This document shows, piece by piece, positions 13,136 through 40,470 of a stretch of DNA of 40,470 bases (within the stretch, counting starts at the first letter, position 1; every line of letters begins with the position of its first letter). Both the position numbers and the translations under genes were made by a program. The stretch lies in the sequence record NC_031943.1. The stretch is one strand, 5' to 3'. The notes under the pieces are model-generated. The model was not told the DNA's origin and searched no databases. It worked only from the letters and a program-made list of their open reading frames with translations. This stretch comes from Escherichia phage GA2A.

Positions 13136-13186
13136 TAGACTCAAGGTCATTCACATCGAGTGACCTTTATGATTAGACTAAACGGA
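13136..13186 (+). promoter_or_regulatory. Conserved hairpin element, probable RNase III site (R3.8-like position)
   Basis: TAGACTCAAGGTCAT...GTGACCTTTATGATTA; second copy of the element. Confidence 0.55.
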
Positions 13187-13195
13187 GGATTAATA

Positions 13196-14068
13196 ATGAA
13201 GGTTCTAAGTCTGTTTGATGGAGTTGGTGGTGGATATCAAGCACTACGGCTTGCCGGGGTCCAAGTCTCTTCATACATCTCTTCAGAGATAGAAAAGAGC
13301 AGTATAAACATAGCAGCCCGTCATATACCTGACTACTTAAACCTAGGTGATGTTAGAGGGGTAAGAGGTGGTGACTACGACTTAATACTTGCCGGGTCTC
13401 CATGTCAAGGCTTTTCGTATGCAGGGAGGGGGCTTAACTTCAGTGATCCGCGCTCCTCACTCTTCTTCGAATTTGTCAGAATAGTCAGAGAATCATTAAT
13501 CTTTAACCCTGATGTTAAAATCTTCTTAGAGAACGTAAATATGCGTAGGGAGTGGAAGGATGTCATAACGTCAGAGCTGGGAATCAATCCAGTAGAAATA
13601 TGCGCATCCACATTATCACCTTTCCGTAGAAACCGATTATACTGGTTCAACTGGGAGTCAGCACCTGAAATAAAGACTGTCAGTTTCAAGGAGCTAACTG
13701 GTGGTTTACCATGTAGTATAGTTGGTAGACCACTTGACGAGAACCTTAAGAGGGTAGACGGAAAAGGCCTTCCGGTGGTTCAATGCATAGAGGTTACAAA
13801 TGGGGATATTGGAAGATGTGTAACTACGGTATCAAAAGACTCATGTGTATACCTAGGGGCTAATAGACCTCCGTCTAGAATACCTGATGCATATGGGGCT
13901 AATCGTAACTTATGGAGAGACCTTACTATATCCGAGCTGGAGGTGGGGCATGGGTATGACAGTGGGTTTTTTGATAATGTCAAGGAATCTACCGCCAGAA
14001 AGGCCATAGGAAACGGATGGAGCTTACAGGTTGTTTCTAGCATATTTAGAGGGCTAAACCATGTTTGA
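13196..14068 (+). CDS. DNA (cytosine-5)-methyltransferase, orphan
   Basis: Ordered C5-MTase motifs: I LFDGVGGG, IV GSPCQGFS, VI FLENV, VIII FRRNRLYWF, X IGNGWS; start at ATG 13196 with RBS GGAGG; visibly AT-richer than flanks; not present in T7. Confidence 0.85.
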   Translation: MKVLSLFDGVGGGYQALRLAGVQVSSYISSEIEKSSINIAARHIPDYLNLGDVRGVRGGDYDLILAGSPCQGFSYAGRGLNFSDPRSSLFFEFVRIVRESLIFNPDVKIFLENVNMRREWKDVITSELGINPVEICASTLSPFRRNRLYWFNWESAPEIKTVSFKELTGGLPCSIVGRPLDENLKRVDGKGLPVVQCIEVTNGDIGRCVTTVSKDSCVYLGANRPPSRIPDAYGANRNLWRDLTISELEVGHGYDSGFFDNVKESTARKAIGNGWSLQVVSSIFRGLNHV

Positions 14069-30394: not shown

Positions 30395-30844
30395 ATGAAG
30401 AACGGGACAGCCAGTGAGAGACTGGCACGTCTTTCTGCTGTAGAGGAAACTGGCTGTGTCCGCTTCACCGGAGGTCTTAACAGCAGTGGGTATGGAAACT
30501 TATGGGTCGATGGAAAGACAGTAGGAGCGCACCGTGTTGCCTATGAGTTAGCGAATGGTCCGATACCTAAGGGTAGCGTACTGCGACACACTTGCGACAA
30601 CAGGTATTGCGTGAACCCTGAACACTTAGTCTTAGGGACGCATCGTGAAAACATGGAGGATATGACTAAACGTGGTCGTCAGGCAAGAGGCTCACAGATA
30701 AGCACTTGCGTACTGACTGAAGAAGACGTCAGGTTTATCCGCTCAAGTGATAAAAGCGGTGTGGAACTGGCACAGATTTTAGGAATCTCACCAGTAACTA
30801 TCAGTCGAATCAAGAGGAGATTAACATGGCAACACGTGGTATAA
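30395..30844 (+). CDS. HNH endonuclease, second copy, inserted between genes 15 and 16
   Basis: HTCDNRYCVNPEHL core with SGYG...GAHRVAY; paralogous to 19336-19746; 3' end overlaps the start of gene 16 by 19 nt. Confidence 0.85.
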   Translation: MKNGTASERLARLSAVEETGCVRFTGGLNSSGYGNLWVDGKTVGAHRVAYELANGPIPKGSVLRHTCDNRYCVNPEHLVLGTHRENMEDMTKRGRQARGSQISTCVLTEEDVRFIRSSDKSGVELAQILGISPVTISRIKRRLTWQHVV

Positions 30845-33800
30845 GAAATAACAACATCGGGAACATTCGTGTGTCTAAGGACCAATGGGAGGGAGCTACC
30901 GGAGATGATGGAGCATTCGTCACTTTCGATACGCCAGACTCCGGTGTCAGAGCATTAGCAAAGAACCTGATGTCATATGGTAGGCAGGGATACGACTCAA
31001 TCGAGAAGATTATCAACCGCTGGGCACCGCCTAATGAGAACGACACTCAGTCCTACATCAACTCTGTTGTGGCTGCGACTGGCATTCCAGCAACACAAAG
31101 TATCGACCTGACGAACCCTGACGTCCTCGCCTCTCTGTCTGAGGCTATCGGCTACCACGAGACAGGCTCCCGGTACAACCCTGAAGTCTATCAACAGGGA
31201 GTCGCAAGAGCACTCAACGGTATAAGCCCAAAGACTCCACCAGTAAGCGCTAAAGTATTTGACGCACTCACGGAAGGACTCAAGGCTAAACCTAAAGTAG
31301 CTCTTGGTGAGAACCTTCCGACCGCTGCTGGTCTTAACATTGAGGGTCAATCACCTGAGGCTCCCAACGAATCGTTCGGTGAGATGTTCTATAAGGCTAC
31401 TGGAGAGACCATGCAGGAACGAGAGGACCGCTCTACGTGGTTCGGTTTCGGTGAGGCTACAGAAGCTGAAGTGAAGAACTCTATGGTCGGCGTGGCTATA
31501 CGAGCTGGTCAGACTGAGGACTCACTGGATGTCATTGGCGATGTGTTCAACCCGACCAGATGGAACAACCATAAGTGGACTCGTGAGGAGCTGGACCAGA
31601 TTCGTAACGCTGGGGTTCTGCCTCAGTATTACGGAGTCATTACTGGCGGTTCTCCTCAGAATCTGACAGAGCTGATTAACTTGGCTCTTGAGAACCAGAA
31701 GTTGGACCAAGAGAGGGCCAAGGCCGGGACTGGCGCTCAACTGGTGGCTGGTGTGATTGGTGCTGGCGTGGACCCTCTGACCTACGTTCCTATTGCTGGG
31801 CAGGTAGGTAAAGGTGGGAAGCTGATCAACAAGATGTTCACTGTGGCTGCTCAGTCTGGTGCTCTGGCTGGGGCATCCGAGATTGCTCGAACCTCAGTTG
31901 CTGGTGGGGACGCTCATGTGGCTGAGGCAATTATGGGCGGTGCTCTCTTCGGTGGTGGTATGACTGCTATAGCTGATGGACTAGGCAGAGCCTTAGGTCG
32001 CAACACTAACGAGTTCGCTGGTCCAGCTACACGTCTGGAAGCTCGCGAGACCGCTCGTAACGTTGATGGGCAGGACCTGTCTCGTCTACCTATTCAGGAA
32101 GGTGAGCAGACCTTTAGCCACCAAGGCGTTAAGTTTGCTGACGTTCCGAACGAGCCGGGAAGTGTTCGACTGGAAGATGGTTCAATCCTGATTGGTGAGA
32201 ACCCTCTTAACCCTAAGACACGTCAAGTCTTCGACGAGGTGATTGAGCCTGAACGTGCGGCTGCTGGCGTCAACCTTGGAGGACTTACCGAGATTGGCCT
32301 GAAGCTCCTGAGGTCTGAGAACCCTGAGATTCGCGGACTTGCCGCTGACTTGGTGCGCTCGCCTACAGGTATGCAGTCAGGTGCGAGCGGTAAGATTGGG
32401 ACTACAGCGTCAGACGTATTCGAGCGGCTTCGTGCAGTGGACCATCGGTTCTACAATGACATTGACGATGCGGTCACTCAGGCACTGAAGGACCCATACT
32501 TCCAGACCAACTTCAACCGAGACACTGGTGCGTTCCGTCAGGACATCTACCAGCGTGTAGCTCTGGCTATCGAGGACGGAAGTGGGAACCTAAAGGCTGA
32601 ACTGACTCCGGGAGAACTGAAGGTCTATGACCTGCTGAAGAACCAGTTCGACGCTAAGCGTGAGATGATGGAGAACCCTGCGATGTTCGGTCGGGTGGAC
32701 GCTAAGTCTATCTTCCCCGGCAGCCGCTTCAAGGGGACATACGTTCCTCACGTCTACAGCAACCAGATGAAGGAGATGTACATCAAGGAGCTTGGAAGCC
32801 CTGAGGCGCTGCAAGAAGCAATCAAGAAGTCGTGGCTCACGAGCTATGCGTCAAGACCTGAGGTAAAAGCGCGGGTGGATGAGGCTCTGATGGAAGCTGA
32901 CCCTACCCTGACTCCAGAAGGACTTGCGGCTGCGGTAGATAAGTACGCCAACGATAAGGCTTACGGTATCTCTCACACCGACATGTTTGAGCGTTCGTCC
33001 GTAATGGAAGAGAACATCAACGGTCTGGTTGGTCTGGAGAACAACAACTTCCTTGAGGCCCGTAACCTGTTCGATAGCGATATGTCTATCATCCTCCCAA
33101 ACGGTCAGCCGTTCAACGTGAACAGCCTGCGTGAGTGGGACATGGACAAGATTGTCCCGGCGTACAACCGTCGAGTCAACGGCGACATCGCTATCATGGC
33201 TGGCACCGGAAAGACCACGAAGGAGGTTAAGGACACAGTAGAGACCATGATGAACCGTGCTGGTGATGACGGGAAGCTGAAAGGTGAAGTTTCGACTCTG
33301 CGTGATACCCTGAAGATACTGACTGGTCGTGCTCGACGTGATGGTGCTGACGATGCGGCATTAGCTACTGTGATGCGTACCATGACCGACCTCTCCTTCT
33401 TCGCTAAGAATGCCTACATGGGCGTTCAGAACTTAACGGAGATTGGCGGTATGCTGGCACGTGGAAACGTCCGTGCGATGCTGCATGGTATTCCTATCTT
33501 CCGTGACCTCGCCTTCCGTAGTAAGAAGATGGGAGCCTCGGAGATTAAGGAACTTCACAACGTTGTCTTCGGTAAGGAGCTTGACGACTCAATCCGTCCG
33601 TCCAAACAGGATGTCATCGACCGCCTGCGGGCGTACAGTACCTTGAGTAAACCAGCAGCTACGGCTTTGGGTTCTGCCAAGTATTACACTGGTGAACTTG
33701 CGGTCCGCTCTCCGTTTACGAAGGTCCTGAACGGTACGACTAACTACCTGCTGGATGCCGGACGTCAAGGATTCTTGTCTGACATAGTGGAGCACAGCTT

Positions 33801-34713
33801 GACCGGAAGTAAGCGCAAGTTTGACGACCGCTGGTTGAAGACTGCTGGTATTTCGGATGAGCAGTGGAAAGGCATTAAGTCCCTCATCCGTGAGTCAGTG
33901 ACTCGTGGTCCAGACGGGAAGTACACCATCAAGGACAAGAAGGCATTCAGTCAGGACCCAAGGGCTATGGACCTCTGGCGTATGGGTGATACCATCGCTG
34001 ATGAGACCCTGCTCCGTCCACACAAGCTGAGCAACATGGATGCCAAGGCGTATGGACCTCTGGCGAAGACTGTCTTGCAGTTTAAGAACTTCGTCATCAA
34101 GTCCATCAACGGGAGGACCATGCGTACCTTCTACAATGCCACCAAGAACAACAGAGCGATGGACGCCGCACTGTCCACGGTTATGTCTATGGGTCTGGCT
34201 GGAATGTACTACATGGCTCAGTCGCACATCAAGGCTTACGCTATGCAGGAGGGTCGTGACCGAGAGTACCTTAAGCAAGCCCTTAACCCGACAATGATTG
34301 GCTATGCGGCTCTGTCCCGTAGCTCCCACTTGGGTGGTCCTCTTGGTGTCGCCAACATTCTAGGCGGCATCGCTGGGTATGAGGACACTAAGATGCTCCG
34401 TTCGTCTATCCTCCCGCGCTCACCTACAGAGAAGCCTGAACGTGCCGTCACATTTGGTGCGGCTACAAGTGACCCTGTGATGAATGTCGTCGGTAACTTC
34501 TTGGAGCAGGTCCCAGCTTTCGGCTATGCTGCTAACGTTGGTGTTTCGGCATACAACTTGGCTGGCTACCTCAAGGCTGATACTCGTGTCAACGAGCGTG
34601 ACTACATGACCGGGATGTATAACACTTTCCGCGAACTGGTCCCGAACGACCCTATTACGCAGAAGTTGCTTCTTGGAACATTTGAGGAACAAGGCATTCA
34701 CATCAAGGACTAA
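30826..34713 (+). CDS. 16: Internal virion protein D (ejectosome protein) with non-T7 N-terminal domain
   Basis: 1295 aa; from ~residue 190 onward long blocks match T7 gp16 (STWFGFGEATEAE, TGGSPQNL, RLEARETARN, SPTGMQSGASGK, NPAMFG, GTYVPHVY, RPEVKARVDE, ILTGRARR, RAMDLWR, LVPNDP); first ~130 aa lack the T7 transglycosylase signature. Confidence 0.95.
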   Translation: MATRGIRNNNIGNIRVSKDQWEGATGDDGAFVTFDTPDSGVRALAKNLMSYGRQGYDSIEKIINRWAPPNENDTQSYINSVVAATGIPATQSIDLTNPDVLASLSEAIGYHETGSRYNPEVYQQGVARALNGISPKTPPVSAKVFDALTEGLKAKPKVALGENLPTAAGLNIEGQSPEAPNESFGEMFYKATGETMQEREDRSTWFGFGEATEAEVKNSMVGVAIRAGQTEDSLDVIGDVFNPTRWNNHKWTREELDQIRNAGVLPQYYGVITGGSPQNLTELINLALENQKLDQERAKAGTGAQLVAGVIGAGVDPLTYVPIAGQVGKGGKLINKMFTVAAQSGALAGASEIARTSVAGGDAHVAEAIMGGALFGGGMTAIADGLGRALGRNTNEFAGPATRLEARETARNVDGQDLSRLPIQEGEQTFSHQGVKFADVPNEPGSVRLEDGSILIGENPLNPKTRQVFDEVIEPERAAAGVNLGGLTEIGLKLLRSENPEIRGLAADLVRSPTGMQSGASGKIGTTASDVFERLRAVDHRFYNDIDDAVTQALKDPYFQTNFNRDTGAFRQDIYQRVALAIEDGSGNLKAELTPGELKVYDLLKNQFDAKREMMENPAMFGRVDAKSIFPGSRFKGTYVPHVYSNQMKEMYIKELGSPEALQEAIKKSWLTSYASRPEVKARVDEALMEADPTLTPEGLAAAVDKYANDKAYGISHTDMFERSSVMEENINGLVGLENNNFLEARNLFDSDMSIILPNGQPFNVNSLREWDMDKIVPAYNRRVNGDIAIMAGTGKTTKEVKDTVETMMNRAGDDGKLKGEVSTLRDTLKILTGRARRDGADDAALATVMRTMTDLSFFAKNAYMGVQNLTEIGGMLARGNVRAMLHGIPIFRDLAFRSKKMGASEIKELHNVVFGKELDDSIRPSKQDVIDRLRAYSTLSKPAATALGSAKYYTGELAVRSPFTKVLNGTTNYLLDAGRQGFLSDIVEHSLTGSKRKFDDRWLKTAGISDEQWKGIKSLIRESVTRGPDGKYTIKDKKAFSQDPRAMDLWRMGDTIADETLLRPHKLSNMDAKAYGPLAKTVLQFKNFVIKSINGRTMRTFYNATKNNRAMDAALSTVMSMGLAGMYYMAQSHIKAYAMQEGRDREYLKQALNPTMIGYAALSRSSHLGGPLGVANILGGIAGYEDTKMLRSSILPRSPTEKPERAVTFGAATSDPVMNVVGNFLEQVPAFGYAANVGVSAYNLAGYLKADTRVNERDYMTGMYNTFRELVPNDPITQKLLLGTFEEQGIHIKD

Positions 34714-34733
34714 ACTATCACTATAGGAAACGG
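34711..34733 (+). promoter_or_regulatory. Phage promoter (phi17 position)
   Basis: TAAACTATCACTATAGGA; its TAA is the gene 16 stop; followed by hairpin GGGAGGCGCTACCACAGGTCTCCC. Confidence 0.8.
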
Positions 34734-34778
34734 GAGGCGCTACCACAGGTCTCCCATTAATTCACAACAGGAGGCATA

Positions 34779-36788
34779 ATGGCTAACTCTACGCTGACAC
34801 AGTTCCCATCTGGTCAGGTTCGATATAAGATTAACTTCCCGTACCTCGCACGCGCGTTCGTGGTCGTCACTCTTGTGGTATCCACTGACCCAACGAAAGA
34901 CAGGGTGCTGGTAGTGGGGAATGACTATCGGTTCCTGAACGAGACGACCCTTGAGATTCTGGCAGACCAGACCGGGTTCGATATCATCCAGATTCACCGC
35001 TTCACGTCCACTGAACTGGTGGTTGACTTCCGTGACGGCTCAGTCCTGACTGCAAGTGACCTGTCCACCGCAGAGATTCAGGCCATCCACATCGCCGAAG
35101 AGGGCCGCGACCAGTCCATAAACCTTGCGTCTGGCTACGCTGAAGAAGCCAAGAAGTACGCTGACGAAGCTGGAGATGCTCTGGAGGGTATCAAAGATAT
35201 CGTTCAGGATGGGAACTTCGACTCGACCTTGCGTCAGGACCTTCGAAGCGATACAGGCCTTACTATGGTACACCGTAAGCTGCCGGACGTTGGGTCCGTT
35301 AACGTTGGATTGGACGCATTGTTCAGCAACATGCTTAACCCTGTGGACTTCGGTGCAGACCCTACTGGAAGTGTTGACTCCTACGCTGCGCTCCAGAAGT
35401 GGGCCGATGCCTGCACAGCTCGTGGATGGGCCTATGCTTACATCGCTGGCATCTTCAAGACCAGTCAGCCGATTACCTTCCGGGGACTTAAAGGCCTGAC
35501 CATCTACGGTCAATGCTATATCTACCCTACGTTCTCCTCTGGTGACTACGTGGTTGGCTTCTGTAATGGTACAGGTCTGCGCATCTATGGCCGATTCGAG
35601 GTCTCCGGACAGAACAAGCTCTATGTTAAGAGCGGTGTTAAAATCTGGTCAGACATGAACCCTAACGGTTTCTCGTTCAGCGACTTCTATGGGCTGTGTG
35701 TTTCTGATGCGGCTACAGGCATCACTCTTGGTGATACTCGTTATGCCAACGCGCTGCTGTCTGAGCTGTCATTCATTGGGAGCTACACGGTCGGGACTCC
35801 TTGTGCAATCCGTGCTATTGGTACTCAGTGCTACTTCAACACCATCGGATTTAACGCTGTAACTGGCGGGGCGGGCGACCTTGCTCAAATCACCCCATAC
35901 ACCTACCACCTGAAGGGCGCACAGCTTAAAATCATCGGCGGTGAGCTACAGCACAACGCGTCCATCTTCGGAGCTGGTGCGCTGGTTGAGCCTATCCTTG
36001 ACCCGGTTCACGGGAACACCTATGGTAACCTGACCATTGACCAGAACCACTTCGAGGTGGCTAGCCTGTGGGTAATGATTGCCAATCTGGATGGAGTACC
36101 AAACCCTATCAGCGCGCGCTCCACTGTTGCCTTGCTGGGACTCCACGGTTATCACAACCAAGACAATGGACCTGTAGTCCTAGTCCATGAGTCTGCTGAT
36201 GACTACCGTGGCACAATCGTTACGCGAGACATCTCCATGTACCGAAACGATGACCAGCCTACCCGTGTTAACATTAACATTCAGGCCCGCAACGCCTATG
36301 TTGACTACGACCGCAAAGGCTTCGGTAAAGGCTTCGTGAAAGGCCTTCAGGCTGTTCAGGGTGGCATCCTTAAGTTCGAGAAGGCGACCGTATGCATCGC
36401 TCAGAACTCCGTAGGTCAGACCCACACGACTACACCAAATAACGTCCTGTACACACAGTTCGTAGCCAACGGTGATACTGACCGCTGGTCTTCCAACTAC
36501 AATCCGGCGACTGGTGAGTTTACTGTTCCGGCTGGCGGACTCAAGGATGTTCATGTGGAGGCAACTGTAGAGGTTGCTAGCTCAAGTCAGGTTACAATGG
36601 CTGTGTACGTTGATAACGACCGCAAGAGCCTCGTTCAGACCCTGCCTATTGCTGGTCACACGTCAGCGTACTTAGGTCATCTCCCGGCAGGCGCTAAGAT
36701 TAGCGTTAAGTGTCAACTGGGTGCTGGCTCAGGTGCTGCTACCGGGTCAGGTCTCGACCGAATGATCATTACCGCTTCAAACTACTAA
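34779..36788 (+). CDS. 17: Tail fiber / tailspike with depolymerase-like C-terminal domain
   Basis: N-terminal ~150 aa match the T7 gp17 tail-attachment domain ([42 protein letters not shown]); the rest is unrelated to T7 and carries [23 protein letters not shown], typical of right-handed beta-helix polysaccharide depolymerases. Confidence 0.9.
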
Positions 36789-36796
36789 GGAGAGAG

Positions 36797-36991
36797 ATGA
36801 TTGAATTAGATTTTAAGAACGAGGTCTTAAAGGCCTCGCCTATCGTTGGGACGGCTGCTGCTGACGGTGCAAGTCGTTTCTTCCTTGGGCTCACTCTTAA
36901 CGAGTGGTTCTATGTGGCTGCGATTGCCTACACGGTGGTACAGATTGGTGTACTGATTTATAAAACCATTAAGAGCGGAGGTAAGACATGA
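36797..36991 (+). CDS. 17.5: Holin (class II)
   Basis: 64 aa; FYVAAIAYTVVQIG matches T7 gp17.5; RBS AAGGAGAGAG; start moved to the internal ATG of track ORF 36710-36991. Confidence 0.85.
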   Translation: MIELDFKNEVLKASPIVGTAAADGASRFFLGLTLNEWFYVAAIAYTVVQIGVLIYKTIKSGGKT

Positions 36992-40273: not shown

Positions 40274-40470
40274 ATCTCACAGTTCAAGAACCTCAAGTCT
40301 CCCCATAGGCCCTCTTTCAGTCCAGACCAAAGGCCCTACCCCAGTCTATCATAAGGTTAGACCGATGGTCAAGACTTCAGGTCAACGATAGGTTGTGGCT
40401 ATTGGTGGTGGTGGAGACGATAGGTTGGGACTATTGGTGGTGGTGGAGACGATAGGTTGGGACTATTGGT
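40274..40470. repeat. Right direct terminal repeat plus one extra partial tandem unit
   Basis: 40274-40438 identical to 1-165; 40439-40470 repeats the preceding unit GGTGGTGGAGACGATAGGTTGGGACTATTGGT. Confidence 0.85.

Follow-up and report, generated by a model that had tools for sequence, protein, structure and literature searches.

A modular beta-helix tailspike with a T7-like anchor and a likely O-antigen receptor in Escherichia phage GA2A

Introduction

In this study, we examine the tailspike gene of Escherichia phage GA2A (genus Kayfunavirus) within a window that comprises the whole 40,470 bp genome, beginning with the architecture of the encoded protein, proceeding to its fold, receptor and possible chemistry, and closing with related systems. 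The gene lies at the position of T7 gene 17 and encodes a protein of 669 residues that is almost certainly a modular beta-helix tailspike determining host range. More specifically, we consider it likely that this is a modular O-antigen tailspike, composed of a T7-like anchor, a beta-helix and a C1q/TNF-like knob, and that it probably cuts the O45 O-antigen of Escherichia coli.

The gene and its parts are as follows (positions in the window).

34779-36788, plus strand: tailspike gene at the T7 gene 17 position; open reading frame (ORF) of 669 residues plus stop.
34779-35114, plus strand: particle-attachment (anchor) domain, residues 1-112, of the T7 gp17 N-terminal type (PF03906), ending in a conserved 13-residue stretch.
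35115-35219, plus strand: Ala/Glu-rich linker, residues 113-147, common to phage Ro45lw and weakly like some Kayfunavirus fibers.
35220-35342, plus strand: short helical neck, residues 148-188, with which the exchangeable receptor-binding module begins, as judged from homologue starts and the structure model.
35343-36305, plus strand: right-handed parallel beta-helix, residues 189 to about 509, the putative catalytic and O-antigen-binding body.
35343-35402, plus strand: N-terminal cap motif (strand plus helix) of the beta-helix, residues 189-208, its position confirmed and supported by a family profile.
36306-36785, plus strand: C-terminal domain, residues 510-669, with a C1q/TNF-like jelly-roll knob from about residue 533.

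The ATG at 34779 and the TAA at 36786-36788 were read in the sequence, and the extent of the ORF and the cap motif agree with what an earlier sequence-only reading of this DNA had described. The protein is 100% identical to the entries 'tail fiber protein [Escherichia phage GA2A]' (NCBI) and 'Probable tail spike protein' (UniRef). Antisense and overlapping ORFs within the gene (e.g., 35040-35513, minus strand) were set aside; seven promoters and every identified gene lie on the plus strand.

Modular architecture of the tailspike

The anchor is of the T7 gp17 type, with PF03906 as the sole Pfam match of the whole protein (residues 14-113, E 9.4e-20) at 71.3 bits against a gathering cut-off of 25.2. 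Among solved structures (phmmer against the PDB), T7 gp17 chains match residues 12-115 (E 3.6e-17), and the Kayfunavirus-type anchors 9lna (E 4e-52) and 9vvr (E 1e-48) match residues 1-138. In the remainder of the tailspike, no stretch matches T7 gp17 in sequence, and solved structures are matched at the cap motif only; weak PDB matches to green fluorescent protein-like proteins (E 0.2-0.4; phmmer) were judged to be chance. The sequence-only reading had placed the end of the T7-like part at about residue 150 and called the remainder unrelated to the T7 fiber. The latter holds, with no T7 gp17 match past residue 115 or so; the former is slightly too long for T7 itself (about 115 residues) and correct as a module boundary, homology to proteins with foreign anchors starting at residues 148-154.

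At the DNA level, homology to the phages Peacock, Dev2, Pisces and Ro103C3lw is lost at 35113-35129 (residues 112-117), just after the conserved 13-residue stretch of the anchor, and is regained at 36797, the ATG of the holin gene. Across the linker, protein alignments to 9lna and phrog_31166 reach residue 138, where DNA homology to those phages is already gone. The neck that follows is modeled as short helices at residues 149-156, 160-163, 178-182 and 188-191. About 50 homologues (43-57% identity) align to the C-terminus, most from residues 148-154 and a minority from residues 185-190, and their own N-termini are unrelated to that of GA2A, including PF18668 (TSP1/gp66-type), PF09008 (P22 head-binding), a Uetakevirus-type anchor of about 205 residues and an N4 gp66-type anchor of about 390 residues (phage PhAPEC7). 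The carriers of the module behind foreign anchors comprise N4-like, Kuttervirus-like, P22-like, epsilon15-like and temperate phages. These foreign N-termini, together with the DNA homology breaks, indicate at the level of sequence that the tailspike is a mosaic of three parts, namely an anchor conserved in the genus, a short linker particular to the lineage and a receptor-binding module that is widely exchanged, and they bear out the earlier proposal of a chimeric protein, the C-terminal module recurring at about 50% identity behind unrelated anchors.

The alignment starts of the foreign-anchor homologues recur at two points, 35220-35240 (residues 148-154) and 35331-35348 (residues 185-190). 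Judging from these alignments, recombination of the module may favor two junctions, one at the start of the neck and one at the start of the cap motif.

Beta-helix and C-terminal knob

An AlphaFold2 model of residues 141-669, built with 40 homologues, reached a mean predicted local distance difference test (pLDDT) score of 90.8 and a predicted template modeling (pTM) score of 0.85; all structure models discussed here are monomers. Searched with Foldseek against the PDB, the model matched the HK620, CBA120 TSP2, K2-2, Sf6 and Kp7 tailspikes best, each with probability 1.00, an E-value of about 3e-8, about 11% identity and 280-400 aligned residues. It also matches pectin-lyase-like enzymes, and the fold is common to the capsule depolymerases Depo32, K2-2 TSP and phi92 colanidase. 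The central domain is thus, as modeled, a right-handed parallel beta-helix of the pectin-lyase-like superfamily, which is the fold of the tailspike and depolymerase class. The sequence-only reading had placed a beta-helix domain in the non-T7 part; the prediction confines it to residue 189 to about 509, leaving outside it the linker and neck (residues 113-188) and the knob (about 533-669), the knob being the one thing which that reading left out. The beta-helix fold led us to reject an SGNH esterase of the sort found in the spikes of Pisces or G7C.

The cap motif supports the same fold. A profile of 123 family members, with the cap consensus kDfGAvGDGvtDDTaAiqaAi, aligns residues 187-210 to solved caps with E-values from 1e-12 to 3e-6, namely those of GH55 glucanase, PfbA, phi92 gp150 colanidase, the Sf6 tailspike, AlgE4 epimerase and rhamnogalacturonase A. 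At the profile level, the motif is therefore a PF12708-type N-terminal cap, and its earlier description as typical of beta-helix enzymes was well founded.

A separate model of residues 510-669 (pLDDT 85.3) matches C1q/TNF-like jelly rolls, from which we infer a trimer-stabilizing, possibly sugar-contacting distal domain. Both the anchor and the C1q/TNF-like knob have trimeric folds, so that the tailspike is expected, by analogy, to be a homotrimer. A self-cleaving C-terminal chaperone like that of phage K1F was rejected, as the protein has no Peptidase_S74 match in Pfam and the C-terminus is C1q/TNF-like.

Receptor specificity

The nearest relative of the GA2A tailspike is gp44 of Ro45lw (YP_009818296), which is 88.5% identical in amino acids and 81.7% in nucleotides over the whole gene. 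Identity varies by domain, from 96.4% in the anchor to 92% in the knob and 84% in the helix, where the 77 substitutions are concentrated. Ro45lw was isolated on O45-serogroup E. coli that produces Shiga toxin (STEC); it plates on O45:H-, O45:H2 and O45:H16, forming plaques with a distinct halo, and fails on O26, O103, O111, O121, O145, O157 and Salmonella (PMC9866566). Moreover, exchanging the C-terminus of CBA120 TSP1 for that of Ro45lw gp44 switches tropism from Salmonella to E. coli O45 (PMC12737597). Both the transferred tropism and the restriction to O45 among the tested STEC serogroups, with its haloed plaques, favor the earlier suggestion that this protein recognizes a polysaccharide and determines host range.

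A published classification defines an 'O45' receptor-binding protein (RBP) subtype that contains the Ro45lw RBP, PhAPEC7 RBP1 and the RBP of a Uetakevirus prophage from the O45 strain CP8-3_Sichuan, membership requiring at least 30% amino acid identity over at least 60% of the receptor-binding domain (RBD) to a serogroup-assigned member (PMC10408124 and supplement). GA2A is absent from that paper and its supplements. Residues 151-669 of its tailspike are 86.3% identical to Ro45lw over the full length and 51.7% identical to PhAPEC7 RBP1 over 95%, well within the subtype; the specificities of PhAPEC7 RBP1 and the CP8-3_Sichuan prophage RBP were themselves assigned by association.

Additionally, an E. 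coli prophage homologue (P0015, 50% identical; GCA_032986265.1) adjoins gtrA/gtrB/gtrC-like O-antigen glucosylation genes. Among 5,426 complete E. coli genomes, a single one, NZ_CP053736 of strain CP8-3_Sichuan, contained the RBD DNA of P0015 (93.9% identity); the strain is classed as O45 (PMC10408124 supplement). The GA2A RBD itself had no match in the same 5,426 genomes (blastn, distant mode), because the prophage copies are too diverged in DNA. We conclude that the receptor is very probably O-antigen and that the serogroup is probably O45 or a structurally near-identical antigen.

Two side observations concern the homologues. Directly 3' of P0015, on the opposite strand, lie gtrA-like (PF04138), gtrB-like (PF00535) and gtrC-like (PF19528) genes (L008, 8199-11112), which form an O-antigen glucosylation (serotype-conversion) cassette. 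Furthermore, many module homologues of about 50% identity occur in genomes of the Enterobacter cloacae complex (P0006, P0009, P0013, P0017, P0024 and P0048). The O-antigen gene clusters of E. cloacae O16 and E. coli O45 are reported to share 84-97% protein identity (PMC7198725), a suggestive relatedness that the Enterobacter copies may reflect.

Conserved glutamates

Conservation was assessed in an alignment of the 123 family members, a diverse set mostly 20-30% identical to GA2A. Three glutamates are the sole charged residues of the helix conserved in more than 90% of members.

35763-35765, plus strand: codon of E329 (motif SE), its position checked in the sequence; glutamate in 122 of the 123 members and a candidate carboxylate of the active site.
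35943-35945, plus strand: codon of E389 (motif GGE); glutamate in 112 of the 123 members, likewise a candidate carboxylate of the active site.
36054-36056, plus strand: codon of E426; glutamate in all 123 members, the third candidate carboxylate of the active site.

Ro45lw retains all three. By the strand pattern of the model, E389 would lie on the third strand of a rung and E426, 37 residues later, on the same sheet in the adjacent rung, a spacing that resembles that of D339/E372, the catalytic pair mutated in the tailspike of HK620, 33 residues apart according to the entry titles. On grounds of conservation, E329, E389 and E426 are candidates for the catalytic center. The only conserved basic residue is R496 (86%), and neither a conserved Lys/Arg base nor a calcium-site pattern is evident among the conserved residues of this alignment.

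The repeating unit of the O45 O-antigen consists of D-glucose (D-Glc), 6-deoxy-L-talose (6-deoxy-L-Tal) and N-acetyl-D-fucosamine (D-FucNAc), with no uronic acid (PMC7685785). Beta-elimination is therefore impossible on this substrate, making a hydrolase likelier than a lyase if the protein acts on O45. Overall, we lean toward the tailspike being a catalytically active hydrolase.

Alternative explanations

Several points weigh against the favored reading of an O45-cleaving tailspike. No Pfam beta-helix family (PF12708, PF13229 or similar) matches the protein even at E<=1, so that the assignment rests on structure prediction and the profile-to-PDB match of the cap; PF12708 matches 7 of 40 close relatives weakly (best E 0.0012), and the tailspike can be assigned to the beta-helix fold and superfamily but to no curated sequence family. 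By the modeled strand pattern, E329 falls on a different sheet from that of E389 and E426. We infer enzymatic activity, and with it the 'depolymerase' label that the sequence-only reading had applied, from the fold, the conserved glutamates and the halos only. The helix differs from that of Ro45lw at 51 of 321 positions, which could shift specificity, and Ro45lw inefficiently spot-lysed a generic E. coli strain (PMC9866566). Finally, the searched literature gives no host serogroup for GA2A, returning only unrelated papers on Bacteroidales type VI secretion systems.

The last points also bear on a different substrate, whereby the protein would be an active depolymerase cutting capsule (K antigen), colanic acid or the O-antigen of a serogroup other than O45. 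Such a substrate would fit the lack of a recorded GA2A host, the clustering of substitutions in the helix, the sharing of the fold with capsule depolymerases (Depo32, K2-2 TSP and phi92 colanidase) and the existence of RBP subtypes that do not follow O serogroup (PMC10408124). It is nonetheless unlikely in our view, given the 88.5% identity to a protein whose RBD is experimentally tied to O45, the occurrence of the subtype in the prophage of an O45 strain and the gtrABC O-antigen modification cassette adjoining a homologue.

Alternatively, the beta-helix might recognize O-antigen without cutting it, acting as an adhesin like some non-catalytic beta-helix fibers. Retention of three glutamates across a family of 20-30% identity is hard to square with the binding of different glycans, Ro45lw plaques are haloed and the best Foldseek matches are catalytically active tailspikes, all of which make binding alone improbable. 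A polysaccharide lyase acting by beta-elimination is highly improbable, as the inferred substrate has no uronic acid and the conserved residues are glutamates, with R496 the sole basic one and no Lys/Arg base or calcium-site pattern among them.

Proposed mechanism

In the favored reading of an O-antigen-cleaving tailspike, this protein is the single receptor-binding protein of GA2A, a T7-like podovirus. By analogy with solved T7-like tails, the anchor (residues 1-112) would fix six trimers to the tail; the region from about residue 148 onward is an exchangeable cassette. The beta-helix would bind host O-antigen along its groove, most likely the D-Glc, 6-deoxy-L-Tal and D-FucNAc polymer of E. 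coli O45, and some of E329, E389 and E426 may cleave it in an endoglycosidase mode. Cleavage could then let the virion pass the lipopolysaccharide (LPS) layer to the outer membrane, followed by ejection of the T7 type. The knob would mainly stabilize the trimer or else supply a second sugar contact.

Evolutionary history

The module belongs to a large family, whose members fall into 809 clusters (50% identity) under a threshold of E<=1e-3 and into 215 when the threshold is E<=1e-30; the majority of clusters cover helix and knob. Between 27508 and 37771, the genomes of GA2A and Ro45lw run collinear with an identity of about 84%, and conservation of the tailspike (79-84% per kb) does not exceed that of its flanks. 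Its guanine-cytosine (GC) content is also unremarkable. On these two grounds a recent transfer of the cassette into GA2A was rejected, and the module was probably already present in the common ancestor of GA2A and Ro45lw or acquired long ago. The replication and structural genes of GA2A are nearer to those of other Kayfunaviruses with different spikes (Peacock, about 90%) than to those of Ro45lw (about 84%), a pattern of backbone and spike that is as expected for cassette shuffling within the genus.

Genomic context

The first 25 kb of the window are about 90% identical to many Kayfunavirus genomes, e.g., Peacock, LS3 and EcoDS1. Around the tailspike the gene order is that of T7, running from gp16 (30826-34713) through the tailspike and holin (36797-36991) genes to the small terminase, Rz and large terminase. 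The following elements accompany these genes.

34709-34731, plus strand: phi17 late promoter (23 nt, ACTAAACTATCACTATAGGAAAC) for the phage RNA polymerase, driving the tailspike gene.
2631, 9041, 18094, 21303, 22309, 34709 and 39640, plus strand: seven phage-RNA-polymerase promoters with the core CTATCACTATAGG; one copy reads CACTTTAGG.
34769-34774, plus strand: ribosome-binding site AGGAGG, read from the sequence, 4 nt 5' of the tailspike ATG.
36797-36991, plus strand: class II holin gene at the T7 gp17.5 position, with GGAGAG followed by the ATG at 36797, which forms the 3' limit of the exchanged cassette; its Ro45lw counterpart is annotated as holin.

Ro45lw has the same 23 nt as its annotated phi17 promoter, and the seven matches to the promoter consensus (<=3 mismatches), all on the plus strand, compare with zero expected by chance. 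The tailspike gene thus has the gene-17 position behind a phage-polymerase promoter that characterizes T7 gp17-type tailspikes.

Elsewhere in the window, the product of a 302-residue ORF (13160-14068, plus strand) is a C-5 cytosine DNA methyltransferase (PF00145, E 7.8e-24). The ORF is an insertion flanked by the genes for primase/helicase and DNA polymerase and falls in the genome bin of lowest GC content (0.44); neither Ro45lw nor Peacock has the stretch 13200-14056. The gene may serve an accessory, anti-restriction function. Just 5' of gp16, the segment 30390-30825 has no Peacock counterpart and is present in Ro45lw as the hypothetical protein Ro45lw_42, making it a variable small gene between gp15 and gp16. 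An exact direct terminal repeat of 165 bp occupies 1-165 and 40274-40438. After the right copy, 32 unrelated bases (40439-40470) end the window, which is unexpected for the end of a T7-like genome and could be an assembly or trimming artefact.

Significance

Much of this picture is already known. The near-identical Ro45lw protein has been published and used in engineering, the 'O45' subtype has been catalogued in three phage genera, and both the modularity of anchor and RBD in Kayfunavirus and the cross-genus spread of the module have been described; GA2A adds no new principle. The GA2A tailspike nonetheless supplies a second natural variant of the O45-type Kayfunavirus tailspike, of which just one had been described, and the 77 natural substitutions relative to Ro45lw provide a map of positions that tolerate change. 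Possible uses include detection of STEC O45, host-range engineering, as with the Ro45lw domain on CBA120, and an O-antigen-specific reagent.

More tentatively, the module (neck, beta-helix with the SE/GGE/E triad, and knob) might represent a large glycosidase family of at least 215 clusters (E<=1e-30) that lacks a solved structure and belongs to none of the curated enzyme families, cleaving O-antigen of the 6-deoxy-L-talose/D-FucNAc type in GA2A and Ro45lw. Were this true, the family would be a new one among glycoside hydrolases, and enzymatic tailspikes would have in the C1q-like knob a distal domain that had not been described before.

Comparison with known systems

The O-antigen endoglycosidase tailspikes of HK620, Sf6 and P22 and CBA120 TSP2 are 10-14% identical to the GA2A protein and differ from it in their anchors and in C-terminal domains that are not C1q-like, sequence homology being limited to the cap motif. 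The T7 fiber, which is non-enzymatic and binds rough LPS, occupies the same slot between gp16 and gp17.5 and has a similar N-terminal domain (residues 12-115 of GA2A), whereas no similarity extends past residue 115 or thereabouts.

A closer parallel in design is the gp17 endosialidase of K1F, in which a T7 gp17-like anchor carries an enzymatic, receptor-destroying domain within a T7-like genome, as in GA2A. The catalytic domain of the K1F protein is a sialidase beta-propeller followed by a self-cleaving C-terminal chaperone. GA2A instead combines a beta-helix with a C1q-like knob and has no Peptidase_S74 match. K1F is likewise a Kayfunavirus, with a K1-specific RBP (PMC10408124).

The receptor-binding module itself recurs in PhAPEC7 RBP1 (gp71, Gamaleyavirus) and in the CP8-3_Sichuan prophage RBP, both of which have a GA2A-like neck, helix and knob at about 50% identity from residues 148-154 onward. 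Their anchors are unlike that of GA2A, being of the N4 gp66 type (about 390 residues) and the epsilon15 type (205 residues), respectively, and their lifestyles differ too. The closest system remains Ro45lw. Although gp44 is separated from the GA2A protein by 77 substitutions, 51 of them in the beta-helix, and the GA2A backbone is closer to Peacock, the two tailspikes share their length of 669 residues, their architecture, their genomic position, the phi17 promoter and all the conserved glutamates.

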